64,000 bases of DNA, taken from the NCBI GenBank assembly GCA_963797555.1, contig CAWCPV010000002.1, forward strand, positions 64,001 to 128,000, given 5' to 3'. A program made the position numbers and the translations under genes. Shown in pieces: positions 5,132-31,748 of the stretch. Under the pieces are notes generated by a model. The model was not told where the DNA came from. It was given only the letters and a program-made list of their open reading frames with translations, and did no database searches. Source of the DNA: an uncultured Gammaproteobacteria bacterium. Lineage in GTDB: Bacteria; Pseudomonadota; Gammaproteobacteria; CAWCPV01. Each line of letters opens with the position of its first letter. Position 1 is the stretch's first letter.

Positions 5132-5142
5132 CCGGCCGGGCA

Positions 5143-15681: not shown

Positions 15682-16851
15682 CTAAAACGTGTGATCGATG
15701 CCCATCGTCCAGCGACTCTCGTCCTTGCCAAACGGGCCATTCGGTGAGCTTGCCTGCGTGTTGTTGAGGTTGTATGCGGTGTAACCGGCGTAGAGGTCGG
15801 TCCGCTTGCTCAGCCACTGCCTGACACCGAACACCCAGCCCTTGGTGCTGTTCAAAGTGAACGGCTCGCCGGTCGCCACGATCCGGCCCGTCGAGTCGCC
15901 GACCTGGCCGTACTCCAGGACCAGCATCGTGTTGCCGAACTTGTAGCTGCCGCCCACCTCCCAGGTATTGCCGCCGTTGCCGCTGACCACCGGGACAGTC
16001 GGGCTGCCCCCGGCGGGGAAGCGCGCCTCAAACTTGTCGGCGTACCTGGCCTGCGTGATGAGCCCGGCGTCCCACTCGTACTGACCGAACAGAGCGAACT
16101 GCGCGTAGTCGAACTTGCCGCCGATCTTGTACGCGTTCCCCTTGACGCCCTGGAACGCGCCGGTGGAAAGGTTCTCGGCCTGGGGCAGATTGCCGTTGAT
16201 GTAGTCGAAGAAGCCGAGCAGGGGGCCGTTGCTGTAGTGCAGACCGAGGCCGTAGGCGGCGTCGTTCGCAGAGGTCTGATCCAGGCCCCCATAACCGACC
16301 AGCTTCAGGCCCATGAAGTCGGGACTCTCGTAGTTGATGGCTTGGGTCTCGCGACCGCCGAACTTGGTGGCGCCGCGCTGCAGCTCCGACTGGATGCCCG
16401 GGAATTCACGGGCCTGCAGCGAGGTCTCGTACAGCGGGTCGATCGCTTTGCCGCTCGCCTTGTAGCCGGTCGAGAGGGTGCCAAACACCAGCCGTCCGAA
16501 GTTACCCGCCAACCCGACCCACTGGTCCTGGTCGACCAGGGTGTTGGTCTGGCCGGGATACTGCGTGATGGTGGGGTTGATTTCCCACGCGAAGTTGAAG
16601 ATGGCCTTCAGACCATTCCCCAGGTCCTCGCTGCCCTTGAAGCCGAACTTGGACTGATTGCTGGCCATGTAAGTGTTCTGCTGACCGAGGTCGATGGGCG
16701 CATTGTTGTCCCCGTTGATGCTGAGACGCGCCTCACCGAACAGCGTTACATCCGCCTGGGCGGCGCCGGCCCCGAACAGGGCCGCAGCAACTCCGAGCCC
16801 AATCGCGCCGCGCCGGACTGCTACATAGCGATTGTCACTTTGATTTGTCAT
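15682..16851 (-). CDS. Gram-negative general porin (Porin_4 type)
   Basis: Signal peptide AQA-DVTLFG, SKFGFKGSEDLGNGLKAIF, LSKRTDLYA, C-terminal Phe. Confidence 0.92.
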   Translation of the reverse strand: MTNQSDNRYVAVRRGAIGLGVAAALFGAGAAQADVTLFGEARLSINGDNNAPIDLGQQNTYMASNQSKFGFKGSEDLGNGLKAIFNFAWEINPTITQYPGQTNTLVDQDQWVGLAGNFGRLVFGTLSTGYKASGKAIDPLYETSLQAREFPGIQSELQRGATKFGGRETQAINYESPDFMGLKLVGYGGLDQTSANDAAYGLGLHYSNGPLLGFFDYINGNLPQAENLSTGAFQGVKGNAYKIGGKFDYAQFALFGQYEWDAGLITQARYADKFEARFPAGGSPTVPVVSGNGGNTWEVGGSYKFGNTMLVLEYGQVGDSTGRIVATGEPFTLNSTKGWVFGVRQWLSKRTDLYAGYTAYNLNNTQASSPNGPFGKDESRWTMGIDHTF

Positions 16852-17072
16852 GGCTTTGCTCCAGACTGAAGGGTGCCTAAGTTCTAGACGAGAAGTCTAT
16901 TCGTTGCGTGTTTGACACAGACAAGCATAGCGGTGGCCCCTGTTGTTCGCAACAATACAACGCTCGAAGTCAATCACCTGGCTCTTTAGTCCACCAGCGC
17001 ATGGCGCTTGTCATCAGTGTTGCGTTGAATCCACTGCTGCGTTGTATGATGTCCCAGGAATCTTTCAGTATG

Positions 17073-17165
17073 ATGACGAGCGCGTGACAAGCCGCTGACA
17101 ACCGACAGACTGACCGCACACGTTGTCTGGCCGCCGCTGCACACATACCTTCATGGAACTGTCAC
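17073..17165. promoter_or_regulatory. In-phase 11-bp Pho-box-like repeats between porin and DUF5132 gene
   Basis: Minus strand GTCAG-N6-GTCAC-N6-GTCAT (17099-17073); plus strand TTCAT-GGAACT-GTCAC (17150-17165); all positions congruent mod 11. Confidence 0.55.
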
Positions 17166-17215
17166 ACGGATGTGGTTTCATGCTCGCTTGTTCTGCCGAC
17201 CAGCTCAGGCGCGCC

Positions 17216-17506
17216 ATGCCATCGGTCGAAAGCCTCACCAAAGACAGCGGGTTGACTGGCCTCGCCCTGGGTATCGGCACCGCTCTTGCCGTCGCCTGGG
17301 TGCTGCCCGCAATCGGGGCGGTCGCCCGACCGGTCGCAAAGGCGGCCATCAAGTCCGTCCTCTCGACCTATGCCAAGGTACTGGAAGGCGCGGCCGAGCT
17401 GGGTGAGTCCCTCGATGACTTGGTGGCAGAAGCGCGCGCCGAGATGGCGTCGGGATCGAATCCGCCGGCCTCGGCGCACGGACCGTCCGCACGTGCGCAA
17501 TCCTAG
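17216..17506 (+). CDS. DUF5132-like small membrane protein (FezA-like)
   Basis: GLALGIG hydrophobic GxxxG segment, RPVAKAAIK, E.LDDLVAEARAE. Confidence 0.8.
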   Translation: MPSVESLTKDSGLTGLALGIGTALAVAWVLPAIGAVARPVAKAAIKSVLSTYAKVLEGAAELGESLDDLVAEARAEMASGSNPPASAHGPSARAQS

Positions 17507-19032
17507 CAGCCTGTCGGACTTGAGCTTCCCAAGACCATCCCAAACCGTTTCAGTGTTGCTTTGGCACCAAAATGGGCGATTTAGGGCCGGAATTTGGCCA
17601 TTTTTCCGCCAACTTCCCGGTTACAGACGCAATGCGGCCATGCGTTTTAGATTCCAGGCGAGACACACCAGCGTCCATTCGGCTTGGACGTTTTGCAGGC
17701 CACGCAGCAGGAATTGGCGAAATCCCATCACCGACTTGATGATACCGAAGACCGGCTCCACGGTTTGCTTGCGTAGGGCATAGTCCGCTTTGCCTTGGCG
17801 TGTCTTGAGCCTGTGCTTCATCGTCTCCAGCGGCCCCGCCTTTTCCGGCAGTGGCGGCGGCTCGCTGAAGCGTTCCGTCCAATGGGGATGATGCCCCTCC
17901 CGGCCTACCGCGATGAGCGGTTGGATCTCAGCCTGCTGGCAAGCGGCAACGTTGTGCTCGCTGAAGTAACCGGCGTCGGCCAGAAGCTTCTCGGGCTGAT
18001 TCAGCCCCTCGGGCAGGGCTTGGAGTTTTCCGACCATCGGCTCGACCTGCTCTTTGTCGTTGGCCGCTTGGGTGACGTGGGCGAGAACCACCAGCATCGT
18101 CTCGCTGTCCACCAGCGCTTGGGCGTTGTAGCTCTGCTCGAAGCCGCCGCCCGCCACGGGCATGATGCGGGATTCTTGGTCGGTCAGGTTGATCTGGTCT
18201 TCGGCACGTGGCCCGGGCTGGGGCGGCTTCGGCTCCTTGCCAGCGGGTTTCTTGCCGCTTGCCGCGGCCTTGGCCGCACGGGCGGCCACCTTGGCTTCAT
18301 AGTCGGCCTGCTCGCGCGCGAAACGTTCCTGGGCGCGTGCCTCGATCTTGGCCTTGGCCTCGGCGATGGCCGCAAGACGGTCCTGCCGGCGCTGCAGTTC
18401 TTCCGGAAGGCTCATCCCGTCCGCCACCGCCGTTTGGTCAGCTTGTTCGGCCAGTGCGAGCAGCTCTTGGACCTCGGCCTTGAGTTGGGCCTCGATCTGC
18501 TCGGCGTGGCCGTAAGACAAGGCACTGTGCCGGCTGGCGTTGGCGTGCAGCTTGGTGCCGTCCAGGCTGACCGTGCCGAAGCGGCTGATCTGGTTCTCTC
18601 GTGCCACTTGCAGGACCTGCACAAAGGCCGCTTCGAATTGCTTGCCAAAGCGCCGCCGAAAACTCGCCAGGGTGTCGTGGTCGGGATGCTGGTTACAGGC
18701 GATGAACCGAAAGGCCAGCGAATCGTAGGTCGCCCGCTCGATCTTGCGGCTGGAGAAGCTGCCCGTGGCATAACCGTATATCAGCAGCGACAGCAGCAGC
18801 GCCGGGTGGTAGGCCGCGCTTCCGTTGCCGGCATAGGCGCGCTCCAGCTCGCCAAGGGCCAGTCCTTCGACCACCTCCACTACGTAGCGCGCCAGGTGGG
18901 CCTCGGGCAGCCAGTCCTGCACCGACGGCGGCAACAGAAAGTCCGTGTCACGGTCAATCGGGCGAAAGCGGCTCATCTCAAAACTCCTCGGGGCAGTGGC
19001 CGCTATTGTACAGGGCTAAGTCCGACAGGCTG
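17507..19032 (-). mobile_element. IS1182-family element A
   Basis: IRs CAGCCTGTCGGACTT / AAGTCCGACAGGCTG, CTAG direct repeats at 17503-17506 and 19033-19036. Confidence 0.92.
17621..18976 (-). CDS. IS1182-family transposase
   Basis: SSRKIE, PDHDTL, LDGTK..ANAS, ADAGY, RKQTVEPVFG..K. Confidence 0.93.
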   Translation of the reverse strand: MSRFRPIDRDTDFLLPPSVQDWLPEAHLARYVVEVVEGLALGELERAYAGNGSAAYHPALLLSLLIYGYATGSFSSRKIERATYDSLAFRFIACNQHPDHDTLASFRRRFGKQFEAAFVQVLQVARENQISRFGTVSLDGTKLHANASRHSALSYGHAEQIEAQLKAEVQELLALAEQADQTAVADGMSLPEELQRRQDRLAAIAEAKAKIEARAQERFAREQADYEAKVAARAAKAAASGKKPAGKEPKPPQPGPRAEDQINLTDQESRIMPVAGGGFEQSYNAQALVDSETMLVVLAHVTQAANDKEQVEPMVGKLQALPEGLNQPEKLLADAGYFSEHNVAACQQAEIQPLIAVGREGHHPHWTERFSEPPPLPEKAGPLETMKHRLKTRQGKADYALRKQTVEPVFGIIKSVMGFRQFLLRGLQNVQAEWTLVCLAWNLKRMAALRL

Positions 19033-19194
19033 CTAGGACGCCAAAGCCCGAGCGTTGCGGTGCGGCGTGCCCGTGGGGCGCCGGCTGACGCCGATGTCAG
19101 ATAGCAGCCACCGAGGGCAACCATGACCGATCCAGAGCATTTCGCCGCCGCTGGGAAGCGCACCGGTTCAACCAAGAAGACGAGGAGACCAGGA

Positions 19195-19842
19195 ATGGGT
19201 ACGGACTCTACGAAGAGTGAAGAGCTCACGAGGCCGTCACCGGCCGAAGCGATCCAGCCCGTCAGCAAGGCAGGCACTACCGTCAAGGAAGGGATCGTGG
19301 GAAGTCTGAAGGGCATCGACGAGATCGAGGCGCAGATCGTCAGCTTGGTGAGGAACACGGTTTCGTATGCCGTACGGGCCACCGGCGGGATCGCATCCGA
19401 AACGCTGAGCATTACCAAGGACGTGGTGGTCGGTGCGCTGTCCGCCACCGAGGAGGTAGGTGCCGGCCTTACCCTCAGCACCAAGAGCGTCGCCAAGGGC
19501 ATCGTGATGGGGGTAAGCAACGTCGGTGGGGACGTCATCGCCGTGGCCGCCGAGATTGTGAAGGCGGCGGTCAGAGGCGCTTCGGAAGTCGGCGCGGACG
19601 TGGGCATGGTCGCCAAACGGGCGGTCGACGGCGTGGTGGAGGCCGTCACCGAAACCGGCGGGAACGTCGCCGATGTGGCGACGGCGGCAGCGAGCGGCGC
19701 GGTGGAGGCAGCCGCCGCCATCGGTAACACCGCCGTCCGTGCGGTCAGAGACATGACCCTCGGGATCGCAGAGGGCATCAAGGAGGTGGCTGGCGCCATC
19801 CTGCCCAAACCCCGGCAGGGGCCGCCCAATCAATCGGGCTGA
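19195..19842 (+). CDS. Hypothetical Ala/Val/Gly-rich protein with 22-residue repeats
   Basis: Codon usage like neighbours, AGGAG upstream; clear 22-aa periodicity. Confidence 0.75.
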   Translation: MGTDSTKSEELTRPSPAEAIQPVSKAGTTVKEGIVGSLKGIDEIEAQIVSLVRNTVSYAVRATGGIASETLSITKDVVVGALSATEEVGAGLTLSTKSVAKGIVMGVSNVGGDVIAVAAEIVKAAVRGASEVGADVGMVAKRAVDGVVEAVTETGGNVADVATAAASGAVEAAAAIGNTAVRAVRDMTLGIAEGIKEVAGAILPKPRQGPPNQSG

Positions 19843-20026
19843 GGCGCCGTCAGCCGCGACTTCCCATGTCCGCCAAGGGTCGCATCCAGTGCGGGCGCCC
19901 CACGCTCTTGGGCTCTTGCGGTAAACCGGTCCCCGGCGCTCGGTGTCCCGCCGCCCCACTCGGGGGCGCGGCGGCGCTTCGTGACGCGGTTGCCCGAGGG
20001 TTCGCCTGGGGAACTTTTTCAAAGTT

Positions 20027-20042
20027 TTCACGAAACTGAAAC
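20027..20042 (+). promoter_or_regulatory. Pho-box-like repeat upstream of HMA2 gene
   Basis: TTCAC-GAAACT-GAAAC, 11-bp period, in an AT-rich patch. Confidence 0.4.
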
Positions 20043-20099
20043 ACTGTGTTGATTTAATACCCAAGGTCGACAGCCAGCACATCACGGAGAGAAGACTCC

Positions 20100-20483
20100 A
20101 TGACAGCCTACATCCATCATGTTCCCGGCAGGCTGCGGGTGCGCTCTGCACAGATCAAGGGTAATCCGCATCGTGCGGCCGCCGTGCAGCGCACACTGCT
20201 GCAGACCGCCGGGCTGTTGTCCGCGGAGGTGAGCACGACCACCGGCAGCGTGGTCATCCATTACGACCCGCAGCGGGTCGATTCCGACACTCTTCTGGGC
20301 CCTTTCAAGGATGCGGGATGCGTGTCCCCCGACGCCAGCCTAAACACCTCCACCGGGCGTATCGAGTCGGCAGCGGCGAACGAACCCTACGCCTGGGGCC
20401 TGATCGGCAAGGCCGTCGCCGGCGTCGTCCTGGAGAAGCTGGTCGAGCATTCCGCCACTGCGCTGATCGGGGCCATCATCTAG
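20100..20483 (+). CDS. HMA2-domain protein (FezC/fez accessory-like)
   Basis: YIHHVPGRLRVR, TTGSVVIHYDP, C-terminal hydrophobic GKAVAG...LIGAII. Confidence 0.82.
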   Translation: MTAYIHHVPGRLRVRSAQIKGNPHRAAAVQRTLLQTAGLLSAEVSTTTGSVVIHYDPQRVDSDTLLGPFKDAGCVSPDASLNTSTGRIESAAANEPYAWGLIGKAVAGVVLEKLVEHSATALIGAII

Positions 20484-20966
20484 TGTAGTGCTTCATTCTG
20501 TTTAGAACTTAAACGTGCGTTGGCGCGGATGACCTTCTGCAGGATGTCCTTAGCCTTGGCGGTCCAGATGAAGGGTTTGGGATTGGCGTTGTGGGCATCG
20601 ACATAGCGGTTGATGGCAGGGATCAACTCGGGGACGCTTCGAAACACGCCACGGCGCAACCGATCCACAGTCAGGTCGCGGAAGAATCGCTCGACCATGT
20701 TCAACCAGGATGCTGAGGTGGGCGTGAAATGGATGTGGAAACGCGGGTGTTTTCCCAGCCATTTCTGAACGTTGGGATGTTTGTGGGTGGCGTAGTTGTC
20801 GCAGACCAAGTGCAGTTCCTTGTCCTTGGGCGTCTCGCGGTCGATTTGGCGCAGGAAGGTGAGCCACTCCGTGTGGCGATGGTGCGGCTCGCAGCGGGCA
20901 ATCACGGAACCCTCCAAGGTGTTCAGGGCAGCAAACAGTGTTGTGGTGCCATGGCGCTTGTAGTCA
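20483..20966 (-). mobile_element. Truncated IS630 (3' third of the element at 33297-34457)
   Basis: Near-identical to 33297-33780, same end TAGTGTAGTGCTT; breaks off at TAGTCA 20966. Confidence 0.92.
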
Positions 20967-21067
20967 ACACAGATGCATCCCACCCACCGGCGCTGACTCC
21001 GCCCCTTGAGCGGCGAAGGCCTCGCTCCTCGCCGATTTCCCCAAGGGTTGCGAGCCCTTTCGGCGCC

Positions 21068-22255
21068 TCAGCCGAGCCTTCCTACCCTATCGGTCATTTC
21101 CCAGGGCAGACCGATGTCCATTCGTCCCATATGTCCGTACGTCGCGAGCCTGCTGTAGAAACGCCCCTTGAAAGCTGCGGGCAGCCTGCGCAAATTGAAG
21201 GTCCGGACGATCCCGGCGGGCCGCAGGTCGAAGTTCCGCTCGACCAGGGCACCGATCTCGCCGTCCGGAACGCGACCGGTGCCGAAGGTCTCCACCTGGA
21301 TGCTCACTGGCCGGGACAGGCCGACCGTGTAGCTGAGCTGCAGCTCGCACTCCTGTGCGAGCCCCGCCGCCACGATATTCTTGGCCGCATGGCGCGCGGC
21401 ATAGGCGCCCACCCGGTCGATGCGCGTGGGGTCCTTCCCGCTCAGAGCCGCCCCGCTATGCCGGGAGTACTCGCCGTAAGTGTCGATGGCGTTCTTGCGC
21501 CCGGTCAGCCCCGAATGCACCGTCGGACCACCCACGAGCAGCGGACCCCCGGGGTTTACGAATAGGCGCGTGCTGACATCCGGGCGTAACTCTTCGTCGA
21601 CGAAAGCGGGCTTCACCACCAACTCGATCAGGTCGTCCCGGAGCCTGGTCGGCGAGGGGGTGTCCGCGCCGTACTGGCTGGCCACGAGGGTGATGCTGTG
21701 GATGCGCGAGGGCCTGCGCCCGCGGAACTCCACGCCCACCTGAGTCTTGCCGTCCGGCGCCAAGTACTCCAGGAGACCCTTGAGACGCACGGCCGCGAGC
21801 TGCCTGGCGAGCTTGTGGGCCAGCCAGATCGGCAGGGGTACGAGGGCGCTGGTCTGGGTGCAGGCGAAGCCGAACACGGTAACCTGATTACGGGCCGGTA
21901 CCGCTTCAATTTCGTCCTCGGACAGCTCGGACTCATGTCCCCGCAGCTTTGGCCCGGCCGGCATCTCGTTGAAGCTCGTCATGATGCTGCAGGTCCCGGG
22001 GTTGAAGTCCTCACGGTCGTAGCCCACCTGGCGGATGACTTGGCGGGCGACCTCCGGAATGTCGACGCTCGCCCCCGAGTTGAAACGCGCCGCGATGAAC
22101 AGGATGCCCGTCGAGACGGCACACTCCACGCGGATCAACGAGAACGGGTCCTGCTCCAGAAAGCGGTCGACCACTGCGTCGCTCACTTGGTCGCACAGCT
22201 TGTCCGGGTGACCCTCGGTCACCGATTCCGAGGTGAACATGAAGTCGTCTCTCAT
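21068..22255 (-). CDS. metK: Divergent methionine adenosyltransferase (MetK) paralogue
   Basis: FTSESVTEGHPDK, DGK, GLTGRK, SGKD, YGHMG; several substrate-pocket residues non-canonical; ATG overlaps ATPase stop. Confidence 0.85.
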   Translation of the reverse strand: MRDDFMFTSESVTEGHPDKLCDQVSDAVVDRFLEQDPFSLIRVECAVSTGILFIAARFNSGASVDIPEVARQVIRQVGYDREDFNPGTCSIMTSFNEMPAGPKLRGHESELSEDEIEAVPARNQVTVFGFACTQTSALVPLPIWLAHKLARQLAAVRLKGLLEYLAPDGKTQVGVEFRGRRPSRIHSITLVASQYGADTPSPTRLRDDLIELVVKPAFVDEELRPDVSTRLFVNPGGPLLVGGPTVHSGLTGRKNAIDTYGEYSRHSGAALSGKDPTRIDRVGAYAARHAAKNIVAAGLAQECELQLSYTVGLSRPVSIQVETFGTGRVPDGEIGALVERNFDLRPAGIVRTFNLRRLPAAFKGRFYSRLATYGHMGRMDIGLPWEMTDRVGRLG

Positions 22256-25200
22256 GGGCTTTCCTCCCGATGTGCAGCCGTCTCCAAACTCACGCGCGGT
22301 GCAGCCCGCGACGCTGTACCTGCAGGCCACGCCTTGGTGGTTTCGTTGATCAGCAGAGGCGCGAGTGCCGTGCCCGCAACGACCAGGCCGTCCAAGAGCC
22401 CAATGGGCGCACTCCCCAGGAATTGCCTCAAGCCGGGTAACACCGCCGACAGGAACTGTAGTCCGAGGGATCCTGCCATCGCCCCCTTCAGATAAGGGTT
22501 CGCGGGAAGCGGCCGCGGATCGAACAAGCTATGCGTCTCGGAACGGCAGCTGATGGCATGCAGGAGTTGCGCCGTGGTCAGGCTCATGAACGCCATCGTA
22601 TTGGCCCTAGCCCCCAGACCATAGCGGTAGACCCCGTAGCCGTATGCAGCGAGCGCGCCCGCGGTGAGCGTGGAGGACTCGAACCCGATGCGCCCGAAAT
22701 CGCCCCAGCCCACGATGGGCTGCCTCGGATCGCGCGGTGGACGGCGCAGCACGTCCGGCTCCGGCGCCTCCATGGCCAGGGCGAGCCCAGGAAAAATGTC
22801 CGTGACCAGATTGATCCACAACAACTGCATCGGTGTAAGGGGTTGGCCCGCCCCTGCAGCGATGGCACCCAGCATGACCATGATCTCGCTCAGGTTGGTG
22901 GCCAGAAGGAAGTGGATGGACTTGCGGATGTTCCCATAGATGGTGCGACCGCGACTCACCGCCGTCACCATGGTGGCGAGATCGTCTTCCTCCAGCACCA
23001 CGTCGGCCACGGTGCGCGCGACATCGGTCCCGGCCCCTCCCATAGCGATTCCGATGTCGGCGGCCTTGAGGGCTGGCCCATCATTGATGCCATCTCCGGT
23101 CATGGCCACCACCTGGCCCGTCCGCTGCAGCGCCTGAACGATCTGGAGCTTGTGCGCGGGGCTCACGCGGGCAAATACGTGGACCCGCTCGGCAATGGCC
23201 GCCAGAACCTCCGAGTCGATGCGCTCTAGGTGGGTGGAGTCCAGGATTTCCAACTGGCCGCCAGCGCTGAGGTCCAGGGCTTTGCCGATCGCATAGGCCG
23301 TGGGGCTCTGATCTCCGGTGATCATCACTGTATCGATCCCGGCGTCGTGGAAGAGCCCGATCAAGTCCCGGACACCGGGCCGGATAGGGTCAGCCATCCC
23401 GACCAATCCTACCCACGTGAGCCCCTGGGACAGCTCGCCCCCCTCTGGAAGATCACTATAGGCCATCCCGAGAACGCGCAGGGCATCGCCCGCCATGCGG
23501 TCATTTTCGATACGGATGGTCGACCTCAGCTCCTCGCTCAGCGGATGCCGCTCCCCATCCCGAAAGATCCAGTCGCAGAGGCCCAGCACCTCCGACGGAC
23601 TGCCCTTGACCGCAACCCGCACCTGCCCGTCTGGCAGGGCATGGTGGCTCGCCATGTAGTTACGATTCTCGGCGCGCTGCTCCAGTCTGAGCACGGGAAA
23701 GCGGCGTCTGAGCGGGGGCACGTCGACCCCGGCATCCATCGCCATGCGCAGCAAGGCCGCCTCCGTCGGCGAGCCTTTGAAGGGATCGCCCGCGCCCGGT
23801 GCGTTCGGCACCGCCTCGTTGCACAGCACGGATACCTCCGCGAGACGCATCAGGTCTGGATGCTCCGACGGCGGGACGGCTGTTCCGTCGGCATCCCAGA
23901 AACATCCCTGCGACACCCCCAAGCGCACACCGTCGGTAGCCACCCGGACCACGGCCATGCGGTTCAGAGTCAGTGTGCCCGTCTTGTCCAGACACAACAC
24001 CTGCACCGCACCCAAGGTCTCGACGGCATCGAGCTGGCGGATCAGGACCTTGTGCCGTCGCATGTCCCGGATGCCGATGGCCAGAGTGGTGGTAGCGACG
24101 GTCGGCAGCCCCTCAGGCACCGCCGCCACCGCCAAGGAGATGGCGGTCTTGAGCATCTGCAGCAGGCCATAGCCGCGCAACAGTCCGAGGACGAATACGA
24201 CGCCGCAGACCGCCCCGCTCAGCACAATGACCCGCGTGCCCAATTGGCTGAGCTGCCGTTGCATCGGAGTCTCAGGGGACCTCGCTTCGCCCACGAGGGT
24301 CTGAATCGTACCGAGCTCCGTAAAACCGCCGGTGCCGACGACGACGGCGAGCCCACTCCCCCCGGTAACGGTCGTCCCCATGTACACCATATTCACCCGG
24401 TCACCAAGGGGTAGCTCGTCCACGCTCAGTGCCGCGGTGCTCTTGCTGACCGGCATGCTCTCACCGGTGAGCGGGGACTCGTCGAGCGTGAGCCAGCGTG
24501 CCTCGACGAGCCGGGCATCCGCTGCCACGTAGCTGCCTGGCGATAGGCTCAAGATGTCACCGACCACCACGTTCTCACTGCCGATCTCTCGTAGGCGGTT
24601 CTCCCGCAAGACATGGACCGAGGGTTGCACCACGCTGGCCAGGGCATCGATAGTGCGTTCCGCCTGCCGCTCCGTGATAAAGCCGATGGTAGCGTTGATG
24701 ATCACGACCCCCATGATGACCACCGCATCCGCGAAGCCACCCGTCGCTGCTGAGATGACGGCGGAGGCGCTGAGCAGCGCCACCGGCAGGCTGTTGAGCT
24801 GGCCGAGCAACATGCTCAGCGCCGAACGTCCGGCGGGCTGGGGCAATACGTTCGGGCCATAGGCAGCGAGCCGGTTGGCCACGGCCCCATTGGAGAGGCC
24901 CGGGTGTCCTGGGCTATCGACGACCGCCAGGACCTCCGGGGTGTCGAGACGGTGCCATAATCTTTGCGCCTGAGTCTGGTAACCCCCGAGCAAGCGCCGG
25001 GCGTGGTGCGAGTGGACATTGCTGCCCCCGCGTTGCGCGGCGCTGCGACGGCTCGGCGAGGTGCCGTCGCCGGCCCTTTGGAGCTGCTGCAGGGCCGTGC
25101 GCGAAGGGAGAAGCCGTTCGATGGCGAGGACGATGGTCGGCAGGTCCGTCGCCTCGCCGAAGGTAACGAGCACGTTCCCGGTCAGCGTGCTGGCCCAGAC

Positions 25201-25323
25201 CCCGGTAACGCCCGAAAGCCGGCGCACCGCGGATTCCAGGAGGGCCCGCACATGCGCGCCGCGGTGAAGCCCATGGACGCGCAAACGCGCCCGCCCGGGG
25301 ACCGCGGTATGGATCGGACGCAC
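22252..25323 (-). CDS. P2A-type cation-transporting P-type ATPase with N-terminal HMA2 domain (start uncertain; ORF open to 25527)
   Basis: HTAVPGRARLRV...TGNVLV N-terminus; TGES, AAVPEGLP, DKTGTLT, TGDGINDGPAL, QLLWINLVTD. Confidence 0.9.
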   Translation of the reverse strand: MRPIHTAVPGRARLRVHGLHRGAHVRALLESAVRRLSGVTGVWASTLTGNVLVTFGEATDLPTIVLAIERLLPSRTALQQLQRAGDGTSPSRRSAAQRGGSNVHSHHARRLLGGYQTQAQRLWHRLDTPEVLAVVDSPGHPGLSNGAVANRLAAYGPNVLPQPAGRSALSMLLGQLNSLPVALLSASAVISAATGGFADAVVIMGVVIINATIGFITERQAERTIDALASVVQPSVHVLRENRLREIGSENVVVGDILSLSPGSYVAADARLVEARWLTLDESPLTGESMPVSKSTAALSVDELPLGDRVNMVYMGTTVTGGSGLAVVVGTGGFTELGTIQTLVGEARSPETPMQRQLSQLGTRVIVLSGAVCGVVFVLGLLRGYGLLQMLKTAISLAVAAVPEGLPTVATTTLAIGIRDMRRHKVLIRQLDAVETLGAVQVLCLDKTGTLTLNRMAVVRVATDGVRLGVSQGCFWDADGTAVPPSEHPDLMRLAEVSVLCNEAVPNAPGAGDPFKGSPTEAALLRMAMDAGVDVPPLRRRFPVLRLEQRAENRNYMASHHALPDGQVRVAVKGSPSEVLGLCDWIFRDGERHPLSEELRSTIRIENDRMAGDALRVLGMAYSDLPEGGELSQGLTWVGLVGMADPIRPGVRDLIGLFHDAGIDTVMITGDQSPTAYAIGKALDLSAGGQLEILDSTHLERIDSEVLAAIAERVHVFARVSPAHKLQIVQALQRTGQVVAMTGDGINDGPALKAADIGIAMGGAGTDVARTVADVVLEEDDLATMVTAVSRGRTIYGNIRKSIHFLLATNLSEIMVMLGAIAAGAGQPLTPMQLLWINLVTDIFPGLALAMEAPEPDVLRRPPRDPRQPIVGWGDFGRIGFESSTLTAGALAAYGYGVYRYGLGARANTMAFMSLTTAQLLHAISCRSETHSLFDPRPLPANPYLKGAMAGSLGLQFLSAVLPGLRQFLGSAPIGLLDGLVVAGTALAPLLINETTKAWPAGTASRAAPRVSLETAAHREESP

Positions 25324-25482
25324 GGCGGCACCCTCTTCTGCGGCAGACGACAATGCCCGGGCCCTTCCAGCGGGTGCAGACCTATTCAGTCCTAGCTCAG
25401 TTACCTCGATGGTCGCAGGCGCGACGCGCGCAAACCAACCGCACGCATCTAATGCGAGCCCGTCGAGGAAACCGTGCATGAT

Positions 25483-25509
25483 GTGGCGCAGATGTTTCAT
25501 AATGATGAC
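25483..25509 (-). promoter_or_regulatory. Triple Pho-box-like repeat facing ATPase-metK operon
   Basis: Minus strand GTCAT-CATTAT-GAAAC-ATCTGC-GCCAC, 11-bp period. Confidence 0.5.
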
Positions 25510-25542
25510 TGGCCAAAATCCAGTCAAATTTAGAGGTGGAAC

Positions 25543-25827
25543 ATGGCACTGTTCGACGATGCATTGAAGAGCTGGGGGGTGCCCACCCTGTTGGGCGTCG
25601 GTGTGGTGATCGCCATCCCCGTTGTGCTGCCGCTGGTCGGCGCTGCACTGCGGCCCGTTGCCAAGGCAGCGATAAAGGGCTATCTCGCCTTCAGCGACGC
25701 GGCCAGCGAATACGTGGCGGGTGCGGCCGAGGAGTTGAGCGATCTAGTCGCCGAGGTCAAAGCCGAGCGAGCGGGCGTCGTTGCCGCCCCGTCTGCGGCA
25801 TCTGGGGCCGGGGCATCCGGGGAGTGA
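25543..25827 (+). CDS. DUF5132-like small membrane protein, second paralogue
   Basis: LLGVGVVI, RPVAKAAIKG, EELSDLVAEVKAE; GAGGT RBS. Confidence 0.85.
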   Translation: MALFDDALKSWGVPTLLGVGVVIAIPVVLPLVGAALRPVAKAAIKGYLAFSDAASEYVAGAAEELSDLVAEVKAERAGVVAAPSAASGAGASGE

Positions 25828-25877
25828 CCGGCCGAACTCCCTCCTGCGGGAGCGTCGCACCTTCGGGCAACTCTTCC

Positions 25878-27743
25878 ATGAGACTTCCGGCCTTGCGCGT
25901 GGCCCACGCTCTACCGGGGCGAGTGCGCCTCAAGGTTCCCGCCCTCAAGGGTAACGGGGATCTCGTGCAGGCCGTGTGCGAACAACTGGAGACTGTCGAC
26001 GCCGTCCTGGAAGTGCGCGCGAGCCCGCTCACCGGAAGCCTGCTGGTCCGCTACGACACCTCGCGAATTCCGTCTCTAGGAGTCTGTCGGACTTAAGGTA
26101 GAAACGCGGGTGTTGCAACGCCCCAAGGGGGGAATCTTGACCATGTGGCTCAGGTATGGGTGAGAAGCTATCTTTTTTGCGTGGCAAGACCCTTCACGTG
26201 CCTTCTTTTCACCCGTTCAGGGCATGCATCCGCTTCAGATTCCACCCAAGGCATACTAAAGCCCATTCACTTCGGACTGCGTCTAAGCCGCGAAGCAGAA
26301 ATTGCCTGAACCCTTGCACGTGTTTGAGGATACCGAAGACGGTTTCCACGGAAGATTTGCGCTTGGCGTAAAGTGCCTTACCTTCCTTGGTTTGCAGGCG
26401 GTGGTGCATCGCCTGTACGGGTGTGGGATTGCGAGGGGGTTTAGGGTCTTCGGCGAAGCGCGTCTGTAAGGGAACATTGTGCTTCTCGCGTTTTTCCGGG
26501 ATGAGCGGCGCGATGCGAGCGTTTTTGCACCGCTGAACGTTGGCCTCGCTGAAGTAGCCGGTGTCGGCGAGGAGGGATTCGCCCTGACCCAGCGCCTCGG
26601 GCAACTGGGCAATGTTCTCTAACGCCGGCGCAATCTCCTGTTTGTCATTGGGGTGCTGGGTGACGTGGTGCTCCACGATGAGATGCGTCTCGACATCCAC
26701 CCCGGCCTGCACGTTGTAGGCCTGTTCGAACCCTCCACTGGAGGTGGGCATGATGCGTGATTCTTCATCCGTCAGATTGACTTGGTCCTTGGCCTGCGGG
26801 CCAGGTGTCGGAGGACTCGGCGCCTTGCCCCGAGCCTTCTTGCCGGTGTGTTTCTCATAGACCTCGCGCTTGGCCTGCTTCTGTTCGAACTCCGCCTGCT
26901 CGCGCTCAAAACGCGCCTGCGCCCGGGTCCGGATCTCCTCTTTCGCCTGGGCAATCGCCGCCAGTCGCTCTTCGCGACGCTTGAGTCGGCGGGAATATCC
27001 ATCTCCTCCGCCAGTGAGCTCCGGTCGGCCTGCTCGGCAAAGCGCATCAGGGCTTGCACTTCCTCCTGAAGCTGCGCCTCGAGCCGGTTCGCGTACTCCC
27101 AACTCAGCGCCTTATGCTTGCTGGCGTTTGCTTTGACCTTGCTCCCATCCAGCGCAATCGTGCCCAGCTTCACCAGCCCCATCTCTGCCGCCACCAGCAG
27201 AATCTCGACAAACAGCCCCTCCAGCTCCTTCAGAAACCGCCTGCGGAATTGCGCGATGGTGTCATGGTCCGGGTGCGTGTTGGCACAGATATACCGAAAC
27301 GCGATCGAATCATGGGTCGCCTTCTCCAGCTTGCGACTGGAAAACACCCCCGTGGCATAGCCGTAGAACAGCAACGCCACTAACATCGCCGGGTGGTAGG
27401 GCTTCGACCCCTTACCCCCGTACACCGCCGACAGATGCCTCAGCTCCAACTGCTCCACAATCTCCACCACAAATCGAGCCAAGTGCCCTTCCGGGAGATA
27501 GTCCTGCACGCAAGGCGGGAAAATATACGGGGTATCGCGGTCTATCGGGATGAATTCAACAGCCATCTTGCTCCCCAGGCGGTGGCCCGCTACAGTGCGC
27601 CTATTCTACCCCCGAGTCGGCTCCAAGTCCGACAGCCTCTAGGCGCCTTTCATAAGCTGCTCGAGCCCATCCACGGGCTGTTTCCGGGTGCCCAGGATCT
27701 GGGCGCTGCCGCCGCGCAACAGGCGGACTCCACGTCCCGCTGA
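25878..27743 (+). pseudogene. HMA2-domain gene interrupted by IS1182-B
   Basis: VAHALPGRVRLKV...TGSLLVRYD; removing the IS rejoins IPSL-GAFHKLLEP...SR* in frame. Confidence 0.8.
26080..27639 (-). mobile_element. IS1182-family element B; transposase 26209-27566 frameshifted near 26985
   Basis: IRs GAGTCTGTCGGACTT / AAGTCCGACAGCCTC at a (C)TAG target; SSRKLE, PDHDTI, LDGSK, ADTGY motifs in two frames. Confidence 0.9.
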
Positions 27744-28121
27744 TCCCCGGCGTTGCGCGACGGAATTCTATCCTCGCTGGGCGCGCTCGATAACCGCTAT
27801 CGGACGCGCCGCTGCGGGGCACGGACTTGCGTCTGCTGATTCCGGTCCCGCTGTTATTTCTCGGCTTGCGGTCGCTCATCGTTGCCGAATAACTACTCGT
27901 TCCCGTCTGACATGACTACTTCTCGTTCACCTTCGTCACCTTTGCGATGCTGAACCGCCCGCGCCACGGCGCGGACGCCCCCTCCTGGTCCTCGTAGGGC
28001 GTCGTCAAGATCTCGGCTGACCTTGCCGAGGCGGCCTGACGGTTGGCGTGCGGTGGCCTGGCCGTCCGACCGTGATGGAGGCGACCCCACCGGCACGTCT
28101 CCGAGACGGACCGTGGCGTGT

Positions 28122-28170
28122 GTCACAGGAACGCAACGTTTCCGATCCGCTAATGTCACGACGGCGTGAC
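28122..28170 (+). promoter_or_regulatory. Pho-box-like array upstream of PlcP-like gene
   Basis: GTCAC(28122), GCAAC(28133), GTCAC(28155), GTGAC(28166): all on an 11-bp grid. Confidence 0.6.
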
Positions 28171-28217
28171 ATAGTGCGCAGCGTCCCGAGGACAGAGCGG
28201 CGCGGGCGATTCTTACG

Positions 28218-29027
28218 ATGAAACCGTTAGAGCTTCGGTCTGTGTGGATATCGGATGTGCATCTCGGTCTACGAGCATGCAAGGCCGAGTTTCTCCTGGA
28301 CTTCTTGCACAACGTGAGGTCCGAGTATCTGTACCTCGTGGGGGACATCATCGACTTCTGGACCCTGCGCAGCGGCTGGTACTGGCCCCAAATGCACAGC
28401 GACGTGTTGCGGGCGGTCCTGCACCGGGCCCAGAACGGTACGCATGTGGTCTACGTGCCCGGCAATCATGATGAGCTTTTCCGAGAATATGCCGGGACGA
28501 TCTTCGGGGGCGTCCAGGTGCGGTCCGAGGCGGTCCACGAGACGGCCGACGGCCGTAAGTTTCTAATCATTCACGGCGACGAGTTCGACTACGTCGTCAA
28601 GCACAACCGCACCGTGGCCCTGATCGGCAGCGGCGCATACGAGCTTCTGCTGAGCGCCAACCGTTGGGTGAACGCGGCGCGGCGCAGGCTCGGGCTGCCT
28701 TACTGGTCGCTTGCCGCTTACCTCAAGCACAAGGTGAAAAACGCGGTCAACTACATCAGTAATTTTGAGCATGCTCTGGTGCACGAGGCACGCAAGCGCA
28801 GGCTCGACGGCGTCATCTGTGGGCATATCCACAAGGCCGCCATCCAGCAGATCAACGGTGTCCTCTACTGCGACGGCGATTGGGTGGAAAGCTGTACGGC
28901 CCTGGTCGAGCACCAGAACGGACGCCTGGAGGTGATCCACTGGGCCGATGAAAGCGTGTTCCTGCTGGCGGAGGGCGAGGAACAACGGTCAGCGTCTATC
29001 CCCGTACACGTGGCTCGCGTCTCTTGA
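28218..29027 (+). CDS. PlcP-like metallophosphoesterase (LpxH-like family; phospholipase C)
   Basis: WISDVHLG, LVGDIID, WYWPQ.H.DV, PGNHDE, HGD.FD, GHIH, GDWVES. Confidence 0.82.
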   Translation: MKPLELRSVWISDVHLGLRACKAEFLLDFLHNVRSEYLYLVGDIIDFWTLRSGWYWPQMHSDVLRAVLHRAQNGTHVVYVPGNHDELFREYAGTIFGGVQVRSEAVHETADGRKFLIIHGDEFDYVVKHNRTVALIGSGAYELLLSANRWVNAARRRLGLPYWSLAAYLKHKVKNAVNYISNFEHALVHEARKRRLDGVICGHIHKAAIQQINGVLYCDGDWVESCTALVEHQNGRLEVIHWADESVFLLAEGEEQRSASIPVHVARVS

Positions 29028-29121
29028 GAGCGCCTGCCCCGCCTCATGCTTGTTCGTGGGTGCTGCGACGCTTACCGGCCACTGCTCACTCGATGATCCG
29101 AAAGCCATAGGAGATAACGGA

Positions 29122-29850
29122 GTGACGAAGCCTATGAGAATGCTCCGAGAGCCAGTGCAGGCTGCCTTCAGTCTGAGCCCGGCCCTGCTGAGCGACGTTC
29201 TGTACCATGCGAAGCCCTTGGGCCACAATGAGCAGCCCGACAATCTAAACCTCGGGTTCGGCTTTCTGTATTACGGCTTGGTCCGCGCCCTGCGCCCGGC
29301 ACATGTCCTGGTGATAGGCTCGGGCTTCGGATTCAGCGTCGTGTGCCTTGCCCTGGGCCTGAAGGACAATGCAAAAGGATGCCTGAGCTTCGTAGATCCC
29401 TCCTATTCGGTGTTCAAGAATGGACCGCTCCACACCATGGGCGGAAGGGGGCAGTGGGACGATCCTCCGCGGGTACGTGATCACTTCGCGCGTTTCGGAG
29501 TAGACGACCGGGTTGTCCATTACAAGCTGAGGAGTGACGAGTTCTTCCCGCAGTATGAAGCGCTGGACTTGGCCGCCATCGACATCGCCTTCATCGACGG
29601 CAATCATGCCTACGCCAACGTCAAGTACGACTTCCTTCAGGTGCTGCATCGCGCCCACAAGAACAGCTACGTCTTGCTTCACGACAGCAACATCTACATC
29701 CGCGAGATGGTGCACCACGCCGGCGTGAAACGCTGGCTCAAGTTTCTGAAGCGCGACAGGGACTGCTTCGAGGTGCTGGATTTCCCGTTCGCTTCCGGGG
29801 TGGCCGTCGTGCGTATCTTGCAGGACGGGGTATGGACCCCGCCGCAATAG
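29122..29850 (+). CDS. Class I SAM-dependent methyltransferase (Methyltransf_24-like)
   Basis: VLVIGSGFGFS, FVDP, IDIAFIDGNH.Y, LLHDS. Confidence 0.8.
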   Translation: MTKPMRMLREPVQAAFSLSPALLSDVLYHAKPLGHNEQPDNLNLGFGFLYYGLVRALRPAHVLVIGSGFGFSVVCLALGLKDNAKGCLSFVDPSYSVFKNGPLHTMGGRGQWDDPPRVRDHFARFGVDDRVVHYKLRSDEFFPQYEALDLAAIDIAFIDGNHAYANVKYDFLQVLHRAHKNSYVLLHDSNIYIREMVHHAGVKRWLKFLKRDRDCFEVLDFPFASGVAVVRILQDGVWTPPQ

Positions 29851-30526
29851 CCCCCCTTTGGGGGTGGCCGCGGCCTCTGCCGCCGCGCTCTATTGGCGGT
29901 ATGTCTGGTTCTTCCGCAATCCGGCCCGGACACCGCCACGGGAGGACGGCGTCCTGAGCCCCGCCGATGGGACCGTGGTCTATGTCAAGCACATCGCTTC
30001 CAACGAGGCCGTGATCTGCATCAAGAAGGGGATGCACATCGCCGTCAGCGATATCGTGAGGAGCGAGATGCCCCTGCCGAAGCTGCTCGTCGGTGTCTTC
30101 ATGAGCCCGTTCAACGTGCACTACAACCGGGCGCCCATCTCGGGTCGCGTGGCGCTAATCCGGCACCATCCGGCCCACGGCCACAACGTCCACATGGGCC
30201 CCATGCATCTGCGGGTCATCCTGGGGCGGCTCCCCCTGTACACGAACAGCCGGCACCTGCTGCAGAACGAGCGGACCGTCACCCGGATCGACGGCATCTA
30301 CAGGGGTCACCCGATGCCCTGCTATGTGGTGCAGATCGCCGCGAAGACGGTCCGCGGCATCGACAGCTACGTAGGGGAAGGACAGGTCATCGAGAGGGGA
30401 CAGACCTTCGGGATGATCCGCATTGGCTCTCAAGTCGACCTGATACTACCGTGGACGGAAGACTTGGAGGTGGCGATCCGCCCCGGCGACAAGGTCCGCG
30501 CCGGCGAAACCATTCTGGTCCGCTGA
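29832..30526 (+). CDS. Phosphatidylserine decarboxylase-like pyruvoyl enzyme (short type); probable 1-nt deletion just after ATG 29832
   Basis: FFRNP.R, SPADG.V, FMSPFNVHYNRAP, NER, GMIRIGSQVDL (G-S autocleavage site). Confidence 0.82.
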
Positions 30527-30705
30527 GTGCCCCCGAGCCAGGGGGGACGGCGCCCTCGCTACACCTCGGACTGCGGCTATAAGTTGGAGACAGCGCTTCT
30601 GCAAGCGCCGGCGGCTATCTACCGTCCTGTCCAGCTCTTGGAGGCACACCTGCGGCTGCCGGAGGACGCGGCCCCGCCGACGCCGCACCAGATTGAGAGT
30701 GTACC

Positions 30706-30872
30706 TTCCGGGGCACCTCGAAAAATTTGGCACTGGCTGGCGCCAGTGGTCCCCGACGAGGAACGAAGCGACGCCCCAGCCCGGATTCTCCGACCTCGAC
30801 GAGCCCCCCTCGTGCACGTCCGCCAGGTGGTCGACTGGGATGCCTTTCGCCCCCGGCTTGGGCGTCTGCACC
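30706..30872 (+). mobile_element. IS5-family relic
   Basis: GGGGCACCTCGAAAAA end-like sequence followed by QPGFSDLDE / PLVHVRQVVDWDAFRPRL fragments in different frames. Confidence 0.45.
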
Positions 30873-31034
30873 ACGGGAGCGACGAGCAGATCGAGGTTGT
30901 ATCAACTGGAGCGAAGGGGATAGCGCCTCTTCGGGAATCGCGTATGGAAAGACCGCGCGGGTCCACCGACACATCCGGCAGCGCACACCACTGGAGCCCA
31001 CTCAGTCATTGCTGCCCTCCTGCGCCGATGGGCG

Positions 31035-31748
31035 TCACCACGGGATCGGCTGGCGGTCGCGGAAGAATCCGCCGCTGGGTCCCTCATCAGGGAGGGTGGC
31101 GAGCCACACGATGGTGTCCGCCCCTTCGGCGGGGGTGCGCAGCGCGTTGGGCCCACCCATCCGGGTGCGTACCCAGCCGGGGCATACCGAGTTGACCTTG
31201 ATGTTGGTGCCGGCGAGCTCATCGGCCAGGATCCGAGTGACCCCGTTCAAGGCGAGCTTGGACAAGCGGTACGCCGGATAGCCCCCATTCATGTCCGAGA
31301 GCTGCCCCATGCCGGATGAGACGTTCACGATGCGCCCGTAACCGCGCGCCTTCATCAGCGGAACGAGCGCCTGGGCCAGAGACAAGGCTGCGTAGGCATT
31401 GGTCTCCATCGCCGCGCGAATTCGGTCGAGATCAGCCGCGAAGATGCTGCTGGCCGCGTGCGCATCGGGCAGGATGCCGGCGTTGTTGACCAGGATGTCG
31501 AGCCCCCCGATGTCGGCGCGTAGGAAGTCCGCAAGCCCATGGATGCCTTCGACATCCGTGACCGACAGGGCTCGGAACAGGATGTCGAGGCCTTCGCCCC
31601 GCAACGTCTCCGCTGCCGCCTTGCCGTTGTCGGGGTCGCGGGCGGTGAGGACCACCCGGATCCCCCGCCTGGCGAGCTGGCGGCAGGTCTCGAAGCCAAG
31701 CCCGCGGTTGGCTCCAGTGACTACGGCGACCTTCGACTCCTCAGACAT
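31035..31748 (-). CDS. SDR family oxidoreductase (carbonyl-reductase-like)
   Basis: TGANRGLG, NNAG, YRLSK, CPGWVRT.MGG. Confidence 0.92.
   Translation of the reverse strand: MSEESKVAVVTGANRGLGFETCRQLARRGIRVVLTARDPDNGKAAAETLRGEGLDILFRALSVTDVEGIHGLADFLRADIGGLDILVNNAGILPDAHAASSIFAADLDRIRAAMETNAYAALSLAQALVPLMKARGYGRIVNVSSGMGQLSDMNGGYPAYRLSKLALNGVTRILADELAGTNIKVNSVCPGWVRTRMGGPNALRTPAEGADTIVWLATLPDEGPSGGFFRDRQPIPW

Follow-up and report, generated by a model that had tools for sequence, protein, structure and literature searches.

What holds together a set of genes for cation handling and lipid chemistry that lie side by side, interspersed with insertion sequences (IS)? The question is raised by an island that spans 15.6-30.6 kb of a 64,000-nucleotide stretch of DNA from an uncultured gammaproteobacterium (contig CAWCPV010000002.1, assembly GCA_963797555.1), the whole of which is called the window below. 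In a sequence-only reading of this DNA, an organelle-type scaffold, a cation pump and a lipid pathway had been taken as a single system under phosphate control. Pfam and NCBIfam scans, together with the translations, agree with the gene content listed in that reading, and two modules are distinguished here. Module A comprises genes for two DUF5132 proteins, a protein made of 22-residue repeats, two CoBaHMA (HMA_2) proteins, a P2A-type ATPase and a MetK paralogue (MetK2). Module B comprises genes for an LpxH/PlcP-like phosphoesterase, a COMT-fold methyltransferase (MT24) and a paralogue of phosphatidylserine decarboxylase (PSD), called PSDl. The explanation that we favour, and consider moderately probable, is that both modules are parts of a phosphate-starvation membrane response, that they are frequent neighbours each able to stand alone, and that the island is one copy of their arrangement, horizontally mobile and damaged by IS elements. 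The source genome amounts to 5.35 Mb in 20 contigs and is 84.6% complete; comparison with 40 relatives, one genome per species, revealed kinship at the class level only.

Conservation and linkage of the two modules

Module A was followed by means of its ATPase, which was searched for in 400 genomes of the window's class, and the 20-kb stretches around the 13 orthologues found were examined. These orthologues are 47-61% identical to the pump of the window, N-terminal extension included, whereas generic P2 pumps reach at most 43% identity and align from about residue 185. In 12 of the 13 loci, the ATPase orthologue has MetK2 as its direct neighbour; HMA_2 proteins are encoded in eight and DUF5132 proteins also in eight. 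One of the 13 genomes (G295) is unpublished, and the permission of its depositors is needed for publication; when it is set aside, the counts become 12/12 for MetK2, 7/12 for HMA_2 and 7/12 for DUF5132. Other repeated neighbours are EcsC (five loci), MgtE or CorA (three loci) and proteins of polyhydroxyalkanoate (PHA)-granule regions (loci L035 and L039), and Pst/PhoU and Ppx genes adjoin module A in L038 and L037. Neither the phosphoesterase, MT24 and PSDl nor the repeat protein and the porin that borders the island were found in any of the 13 ATPase loci. Judged from these neighbourhoods, module A is a conserved unit of its own.

Module B was followed by means of PSDl, in an alignment-based scan of one genome per species. 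This survey yielded 52 orthologous loci (L054-L105, 50-64% identity), together with 28 ordinary PSDs (29-37%). Most of the loci belong to Thermodesulfobacteriota (Syntrophobacteraceae, Desulfomonilaceae, Desulfobaccales and the isolate Desulfoferrobacter suflitae), and the remaining ones to Casimicrobiaceae, Methylobacillus, Alcaligenaceae, other Gammaproteobacteria, Anaerolineales and Planctomycetes. In 51 of the 52 loci, the gene immediately before PSDl is that for MT24, and in 44 of the 52 PSDl is followed by a full-length protein of about 800 residues in which a PHP-like domain is fused to a family 4 glycosyltransferase, or GT4 (for instance L085:10661-13054). Among the 400 genomes of the window's class, a single PSDl orthologue was found (genome G147, 49% identity); there, MT24 and PSDl are adjacent, preceded by a Phosphodiest protein of the alkaline-phosphatase type and facing a gene for an OlsF-like ornithine-lipid acyltransferase. 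Module B, to judge from its distribution, is also a conserved unit, mostly in another phylum.

How often do the two modules meet? PSDl has genes of module A within 10 kb at 15 of the 52 loci, and at 10 of the 22 loci that have at least 9 kb on both flanks; in eight of the 12 full-flank loci without module A nearby, the pump is encoded elsewhere in the genome. Six loci keep the whole order, with MetK2, the pump, the repeat protein, HMA_2 genes and DUF5132 on one strand, and MT24 and PSDl on the other; in five of these six a PadR gene was detected between the two sets. At another place between modules (L065:4194-7750), a patatin-like phospholipase gene is found together with a gene for an 804-residue protein carrying Prok-E2_A, ThiF and Prok-JAB, which looks like an inserted defence-type cassette. 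In the class of genome G404 (Thermodesulfobacteriota), represented by 83 genomes, a pump orthologue occurs in 46 and PSDl in 50: both modules are present in 42 genomes, A only in four, B only in eight and neither in 29. In 24 of the 42 genomes, the pump and PSDl are encoded at most 11 kb apart on one contig. The co-occurrence to be expected if the island were more than an IS-assembled mosaic was therefore found, modules A and B adjoining each other in many other genomes, largely of bacteria of the sulfate-reducer type. On the strength of these comparisons, the two modules are separable units and frequent neighbours, and the window repeats that neighbourhood.

Predicted products of modules A and B

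The pump of module A (22252-25527, reverse strand; an open reading frame (ORF) of 1,091 codons, with a true start probably near 25479-25500) matches Cation_ATPase_N, E1-E2_ATPase, Hydrolase and Cation_ATPase_C, and is of the P2A type (SPCA/SERCA/LMCA1-like). Its NCBIfam scores are 584.6 for the PMR1-type calcium pump (cut-off 798.3) and 535.1 for the SERCA type (cut-off 703.4), and its nearest solved relatives, aligned over the length of the protein, are SPCA1 and LMCA1. In the alignment with SPCA1, the pump carries PEGLP in transmembrane segment 4 (TM4), Asn..Glu in TM5 and Asn..Thr-Asp in TM6, at positions that we take to be those of the two calcium sites of SERCA. The transported ion would most likely be Ca2+, possibly Mn2+. 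A CoBaHMA-like domain is found at the N-terminus, where HMA_2 is matched weakly (22 bits for a cut-off of 30); the N-termini of orthologous pumps match the small HMA_2 protein in tblastn searches.

MetK2 (21068-22255, reverse strand) is encoded directly downstream of the ATPase and scores 365.8 bits with TIGR01034 (cut-off 309.4). Because a housekeeping MetK is encoded on another contig (624.5 bits with the same model) and a housekeeping PSD, of the long type, also elsewhere in the genome, the island copies of both enzymes are paralogues. Five housekeeping MetKs and one solved MetK share four identical motifs, all of which are replaced in each of the four MetK2 proteins compared, at positions assigned to methionine binding in E. 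coli MetK. What is kept is the N-terminal His-Pro-Asp-Lys motif, together with the motifs on the triphosphate side, and MetK2 looks still able to bind ATP. Since the canonical residues of the methionine pocket are lost, it seems unlikely that MetK2 feeds S-adenosylmethionine to MT24; as a candidate for this role it was rejected on these replacements and on its presence behind the pump in genomes devoid of MT24.

The pump is accompanied by genes for small membrane proteins. DUF5132 no. 1 (17216-17506, forward strand; 96 residues, intact; 37.9 bits with the Pfam model) consists of a hydrophobic N-terminal segment, with G-x3-G inside it, followed by a helix. DUF5132 no. 2 (25543-25827, forward strand; 94 residues, intact) scores 23.6 bits with the same profile, under its cut-off, and the two copies are 51% identical over 61 residues (BLASTP, 3e-14). 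The CoBaHMA domain was reportedly described by Gaschignard et al. in 2024; the family model is Pfam HMA_2 (PF19991), whose cut-off of 30 bits is passed by both small proteins of the island. The first of these (20100-20483, forward strand; 127 residues, intact; 40.2 bits) has a hydrophobic C-terminus and full-length matches in loci L043 and L031. The second (25878-27958, forward strand) is represented by an N-terminal part (25878-26075, 53.8 bits), cut at 26076 by an IS5-like element, and by a C-terminal remnant (27818-27958), traced by tblastn with six membrane-anchored orthologues, which lies in another frame and whose translation contains two in-frame stops. The interruption by an IS element, as it had been read earlier, is thus correct, but the frameshifted remnant and its stops make this gene a pseudogene and not merely an interrupted gene. 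No further copies of HMA_2 or DUF5132 were detected in a profile search of the whole 5.35-Mb genome.

The repeat protein (19123-19842, forward strand; 239 residues) has no Pfam match above threshold, the sub-threshold ones being Apolipoprotein and Phasin_2. About eight amphipathic repeats of 22 residues (2 x 11), rich in Ala, Val and Gly, occupy residues 46-221. The period of 22 noticed in the sequence-only reading is borne out by the self-similarity of the sequence, which reaches 0.84 at lag 22 and 1.03 at lag 44, against -0.42 +/- 0.17 in 500 shuffles (z of about 7). The hydrophobic moment peaks at 1.22 for 98.2 degrees, as compared with at most 0.25 at 90 and 100 degrees. Such a periodicity is typical of amphipathic helices built of 11-mers, which rest on the surface of lipids. 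Orthologues of the repeat protein (51-56% identity) occur at seven of the 52 PSDl loci and adjoin the pump in six of the seven.

In module B, the phosphoesterase (28218-29027, forward strand) matches Metallophos (40.3 bits), reaches 38.6-40.8 bits with the LpxH models, whose cut-offs are 134-190, and has LpxH as its nearest solved relatives. It is therefore LpxH-like without being LpxH, as expected of PlcP, and would act as a phospholipase C. A 20-bp palindrome (28153-28172; 7-bp arms and a 6-bp spacer), read from the sequence 46 bp upstream of the gene, is a possible operator. MT24 (29134-29850, forward strand; Methyltransf_24, 65.5 bits) matched nothing under E 0.4 when its sequence was compared with those of solved proteins. 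Its AlphaFold2 model (pLDDT 74.3) gave Rv0187, SafC, COMT, TomG and MeT1 as the best Foldseek matches (TM 0.55-0.63); the nearest solved folds are therefore those of cation-dependent COMT-like O-methyltransferases, one of which is a sugar O-methyltransferase. The model argues for O-methylation rather than lipid N-methylation, without settling the matter. PSDl (29858-30526, forward strand; PS_Dcarbxylase, 141.5 bits) is of the short type and stands under all 14 NCBIfam cut-offs for PSD. Aligned with nine ordinary short PSDs, it shows all the motifs of the short type, the Gly-Ser self-cleavage site among them, and two insertions specific to its clade. In five other carriers too, PSDl is an additional PSD copy. 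The ORF that follows it (30527-31195), considered as a fourth gene, was rejected, since neither a family match nor a relative in any of the loci was found for it.

Three non-homologous phosphoesterases partner the MT24-PSDl pair: a Metallophos protein (window, L057, L060 and L074), the PHP-like domain (44 loci) and Phosphodiest (G147). Orthologues of the phosphoesterase of the window (51-58% identity) are restricted to the proteobacterial loci L057, L060 and L074, where they lie beside separate GT4 genes and genes for a diacylglycerol kinase (DgkA), an OlsB-like protein, PhoR and PhoX. In the Casimicrobiaceae locus L057, a gene for S-adenosylmethionine decarboxylase (4719-5192) is found between the PlcP-like/GT4/DgkA operon and MT24-PSDl. 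As for the fusion protein of the 44 loci, its C-terminal half is a GT4 glycosyltransferase and its N-terminal half shows an invariant Asp/His pattern of the PHP type. The assignment to PHP depends on signals that are all weak, namely Pfam PHP and PHP_C at E 0.03-0.04, a PHP-type structure at E 0.8 and look-alike clusters of the Atlas with PHP_C, the fold prediction being unusable (pLDDT 40.5). The fusion resembles a one-protein form of the PlcP-plus-Agt pair.

Proposed phosphate control and the state of the island

The genome encodes PhoB (352.7 bits), and the region upstream of its own pstS carries a Pho box of the E. coli type. The genome was scanned for three 7-bp half-sites at an 11-bp spacing, with at least 15 of 21 positions matching a Pho half-site consensus. 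In the 364-bp spacer between the porin gene and DUF5132 no. 1, two such arrays lie 75 bp apart, each with 15 of 21 matches: one (17073-17101, reverse strand) faces the porin, and the other (17148-17176, forward strand) is located 40-68 bp upstream of DUF5132 no. 1. In the 5.35 Mb of the genome, there are no more than 27 hits of this quality. Among the promoter regions, four in number, that had been credited with Pho-box-like repeats, this one stands out, and the best sites of the others, at 11-13 of 21, are at chance level. In particular, no Pho box above chance was found upstream of the phosphoesterase gene (27745-28217), where the best site matches 13 of 21 positions and about 0.14 is expected by chance.

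Related loci offer a second view of this control. In 65 of them (1.05 Mb), the same scan gave 27 Pho-like arrays, seven of which, in six loci, precede a module gene by at most 130 bp; this gene codes for the pump or an HMA_2 protein in L032, L035 and L037, and for MT24 in L075, L080 and L104. These arrays are supportive but not conclusive, intergenic DNA being richer in such motifs than coding DNA. The neighbourhoods point in the same direction. PhoH-PIN genes are found beside nine of the 52 PSDl loci and OlsF-like genes beside eight; genes for PhoR, PhoX, PstS-like and OlsB-like proteins also occur beside related loci, and PhoX adjoins module B in L074. The link to phosphate starvation proposed from the sequence is thus sustained by the arrays between porin and DUF5132, by the Pho, lipid and glycosyltransferase genes beside orthologous loci and by the arrays in six of the 65 related loci. 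Phosphate control would extend, by inference, to the island as a whole.

What state, then, is the island in? A first IS5-like element (17501-19038, reverse strand; 21-nt perfect inverted repeats; DDE_Tnp_1, DDE_Tnp_1_6 and DUF772) encodes an intact transposase of 451 residues (17621-18976) and sits at the stop codon of DUF5132 no. 1, inside a CTAG target. Between the first HMA_2 gene and MetK2 lies a remnant of an IS630-like transposase (20480-20983, reverse strand), which corresponds to the C-terminal part only of Pfam DDE_3 (profile positions 31-145 of 146). Contigs about 95% identical to the island, from three marsh metagenome runs, join 17505 to 19078, with the first IS missing, and 20483 to 20984, with 10 letters between them. 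A deletion had been supposed between the first HMA_2 gene and MetK2; these direct joins give it no support, and no gene is missing there. The second IS5-like element (26076-27643) lies within the second HMA_2 gene. Its transposase is frameshifted, in two overlapping frames (297 and 264 residues; 26209-27566), and the element has strongly diverged from the first, with 74% identity in the sole 43-nt stretch found; among the metagenome contigs listed, none spans this element. That the island is an IS-made mosaic was rejected, as the neighbourhood of the modules recurs in many genomes and the metagenome relatives keep the genes without two of the IS elements.

The left border is marked by housekeeping genes (a LeuRS fragment, LptE, HolA, NadD, RsfS, KdtA, citrate synthase, aconitase and PCMT), and the right one, according to family scans, by IS-rich DNA. 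The porin gene (Porin_4, 116.1 bits; 15682-16851, reverse strand) diverges from DUF5132 no. 1. No match to this porin was found in the related loci L031-L044, L050-L053 and L054-L133, and it lies outside the conserved cluster. A strong terminator-like hairpin is present at 15646-15619; a scan for sigma-70 promoters and terminators gave no excess over shuffled sequences. Farther to the left, between PCMT and an SH3_3 protein, two overlapping long ORFs (12294-14751; 563 and 324 residues) have a high third-position G+C and no Pfam match. To the right are found an intact IS630-like transposase gene (33294-34379), a gene for a 581-residue glutaminase fused to a cyclic-nucleotide-binding domain (36728-38473) and a DDE_Tnp_1 fragment (39443-40396), the whole region of 15-40 kb being rich in IS.

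Known systems and competing explanations

Several known systems invite comparison. Fez clusters, in the accessible part of the preprint that presents them, encode the P1B-6 ATPase FezB together with FezA and FezC (Grant et al., bioRxiv 10.1101/2020.01.10.902569). As far as that part goes, the island shares with them a P-type ATPase with a basic N-terminal HMA-like motif, and membrane HMA-like proteins; its small hydrophobic proteins may be counterparts of the FezA kind, and HMA_2 may correspond to the R-rich motif of the preprint. However, the pump of the window is P2A and not P1B-6, as indicated by Cation_ATPase_N and Cation_ATPase_C, by the P2A calcium-type NCBIfam models and by its SPCA1 and LMCA1 relatives. 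The island also has an additional repeat protein and a MetK-like protein, and its context is one of phosphate, not iron; no iron genes (Feo, Fur, DtxR, ferritin-like) were found among the window genes scanned. Because the pump is P2A and iron genes are absent, the island is not a fez cluster. A classical fez-like cluster does occur in the window's class (L044, G021:C11:52000-66955), with FeoA-FeoA-FeoB, two small HMA_2-like proteins, a 191-residue protein that matches no family and a P-type ATPase of 689 residues. It shares the HMA_2 domain with the island; no similarity was detected between DUF5132 and its 191-residue protein.

A second parallel is found around ccyA (calcyanin) in Microcystis aeruginosa PCC 7806, a candidate locus for intracellular amorphous calcium carbonate, where, according to the available portion of a preprint, two DUF5132 proteins, CoBaHMA proteins and a Ca2+/H+ exchanger are encoded and co-expressed (bioRxiv 10.1101/2024.07.07.602159). 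Within the limits of that portion, both loci combine two DUF5132 proteins and CoBaHMA (HMA_2) proteins with an adjoining calcium transporter, and have IS elements nearby; the transporter is an exchanger there and a P-type pump here, and a MetK-like gene, a repeat protein and lipid genes are not reported in it. Basic CoBaHMA domains have been proposed to bind anionic lipids, as related in excerpts of citing papers, the same preprint among them (bioRxiv 10.1101/2024.07.07.602159). DUF5132 and CoBaHMA are rarely mentioned in the literature searched, and the accession PF19991 was found only in this preprint, subscription journals being mostly outside the search.

On the lipid side, PlcP genes adjoin genes for phosphorus-free lipids and Pho boxes, in the part of the article that could be consulted (PMC4796936). 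Compared with what is given there, module B likewise has an LpxH-like metallophosphoesterase beside genes for alternative head groups, with Pho-regulon neighbours, and in L057 and L074 the orthologue is followed by GT4, in the manner of plcP-agt. The partners differ, being a COMT-fold methyltransferase and a PSD paralogue instead of btaAB or agt; moreover, most loci use a PHP-like domain fused to GT4, and the gene of the window has no Pho box above chance. By analogy with that partial account, the neighbourhood of module B would be the classical setting of phosphorus-free lipid synthesis around plcP (PMC4796936). Finally, in the PacL/CtpC pair of mycobacteria, a small membrane partner is proposed to scaffold a P-type ATPase (bioRxiv 10.1101/2021.10.01.462712; PMC13043812, both available in part). 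The likeness, drawn from these descriptions only, is that of a small membrane partner encoded with a P-type ATPase; the pump there is P1B and the partner families differ. Searches that left subscription journals mostly aside returned no paper joining at least three of PlcP, phosphatidylserine decarboxylase, O-methyltransferase and Pho box, and the literature searched contained no experimental study of module A or B.

Considering these properties, the favoured explanation may be developed as follows. In module A, the SERCA/SPCA-like P2A pump would move Ca2+, possibly Mn2+, and its N-terminal CoBaHMA domain, together with the free-standing CoBaHMA and DUF5132 proteins, would act as membrane-bound regulators or scaffolds. 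The amphipathic 22-mer repeat protein would lie on a lipid surface, and the MetK-like protein would have kept ATP binding and lost its methionine pocket. In module B, the PlcP-like phosphoesterase would strip head groups from phospholipids, after which a head group would be modified by an O-methyltransferase that depends on metal and by a PSD-family decarboxylase of the pyruvoyl type; in most other genomes, the fused PHP-like phosphoesterase/GT4 would complete the operon. The two modules might be tied functionally if the basic CoBaHMA domains sensed the loss of anionic phospholipids and cation handling were adapted to it.

Several observations weigh against this explanation. In the window's class, 12 of the 13 genomes that bear module A have no PSDl orthologue, and the thirteenth, G147, has both modules on different contigs. 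Conversely, no pump orthologue (E <= 1e-180) was found in nine of the 17 B-bearing genomes tested, among them all seven proteobacterial ones and the isolate Desulfoferrobacter suflitae DRH4. Common ancestry, and not function, may account for part of the co-occurrence in the class of G404, related genomes not being independent samples. The pump stands under every NCBIfam equivalog cut-off, and its ion, probably Ca2+, is deduced from motifs by analogy with SERCA. As to phosphate, the pstS site of the genome itself would score only about 13 of 21 with the consensus used in the scan, and the other window regions examined reach 8-13 of 21, which is the level of chance. Lastly, a glycosyltransferase is encoded in 47 of the 52 related loci and none near the island of the window; with the gene for the membrane-anchored CoBaHMA protein dead as well, the island may be partly non-functional.

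Among the other explanations, an efflux platform may be envisaged, which we regard as improbable. Module A would be a Ca2+/Mn2+ exporter of the plasma membrane, with partners that scaffold or chaperone it as in the case of PacL, and module B only a co-regulated neighbour. Under phosphate starvation, the exporter would remove cation freed from polyphosphate and anionic lipids, or supply Ca2+ to periplasmic phosphatases that depend on it, such as PhoX. The nearest solved relatives of the pump are indeed exporters or luminal loaders of Ca2+/Mn2+, the modules are separable, and PhoX beside module B in L074 and Pst/PhoU and Ppx beside module A in L038 and L037 would fit such a role. So would the small single-pass partners and the scaffold-like repeat protein, which resemble the idea proposed for PacL/CtpC, as far as the consulted parts of those reports tell. 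However, the strictly conserved MetK-like gene is left unexplained, and so is the adjacency of the two modules in 24 of 42 genomes of one class.

It is rather unlikely, in our estimation, that the two modules form one integrated system, in which A would build a lipid-bounded cation store, as an analogue of a calcium ferrosome or of a carbonate inclusion, and B would tailor its lipid under phosphate starvation. The architecture parallels that of fez clusters and of the Microcystis ccyA neighbourhood, within what is accessible of the two preprints (bioRxiv 10.1101/2020.01.10.902569; bioRxiv 10.1101/2024.07.07.602159). The repeat protein bears the 11/22-mer amphipathic signature of lipid-coating proteins, genes of PHA-granule regions adjoin module A in L035 and L039, and the modules diverge in six loci, with PadR detected between them in five, and lie at most 11 kb apart in the 24 of 42 genomes mentioned above. 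Yet the pump is not P1B-6 and iron genes are lacking, no homology was found between DUF5132 and the small protein of the fez-like cluster, and P2A pumps normally export across the cell membrane. Module A is found alone in 12 of 13 genomes of the window's class, and module B alone in nine of 17. Because the modules are separable, the single organelle-plus-lipid system of the sequence-only reading is not shown. In its fullest form, which we hold to be as unlikely, this idea makes the island a proteobacterial outpost of a phosphate-starvation programme, where phospholipid stripping and a new head-group chemistry (GT4, O-methyltransferase, PSD-like) would be joined to a CoBaHMA-gated calcium pump with a 22-mer coat and a re-purposed MetK-like enzyme, the pump either loading a lipid-bounded store, a 'calcium ferrosome', or being tuned to the loss of anionic lipids. 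The organelle in such a scheme is speculative.

Very unlikely, in our estimation, is a decaying or chance collection of genes that were acquired horizontally, disrupted by IS and are now being lost, and whose adjacency would be meaningless in this genome. In its favour, the island contains three IS elements or remnants, with more to its right, one CoBaHMA gene is a pseudogene, the typical glycosyltransferase of module B is missing and proteobacterial relatives carry B without A, but all other genes are intact and full length, the marsh metagenome relatives, about 95% identical, keep them without two of the IS elements, and the adjacency of A and B recurs in many genomes of another phylum.

The finding combines known kinds of loci, cation clusters of the fez and ccyA types on one side and lipid remodelling of the PlcP type on the other. 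Module B, a compact operon in at least 52 species-level genomes, is a candidate route to an undescribed membrane lipid, either phosphorus-free or modified. With module A, the toolkit of ferrosomes and calcium carbonate, in which CoBaHMA and small membrane proteins accompany a cation transporter, would come to include a P-type pump of the calcium type. The recurrent adjacency of the two modules makes it possible to test the published proposal that anionic lipids are bound by CoBaHMA domains. Furthermore, an enzymatic activity not yet described is suggested by the rebuilt pocket of the conserved MetK-like protein.

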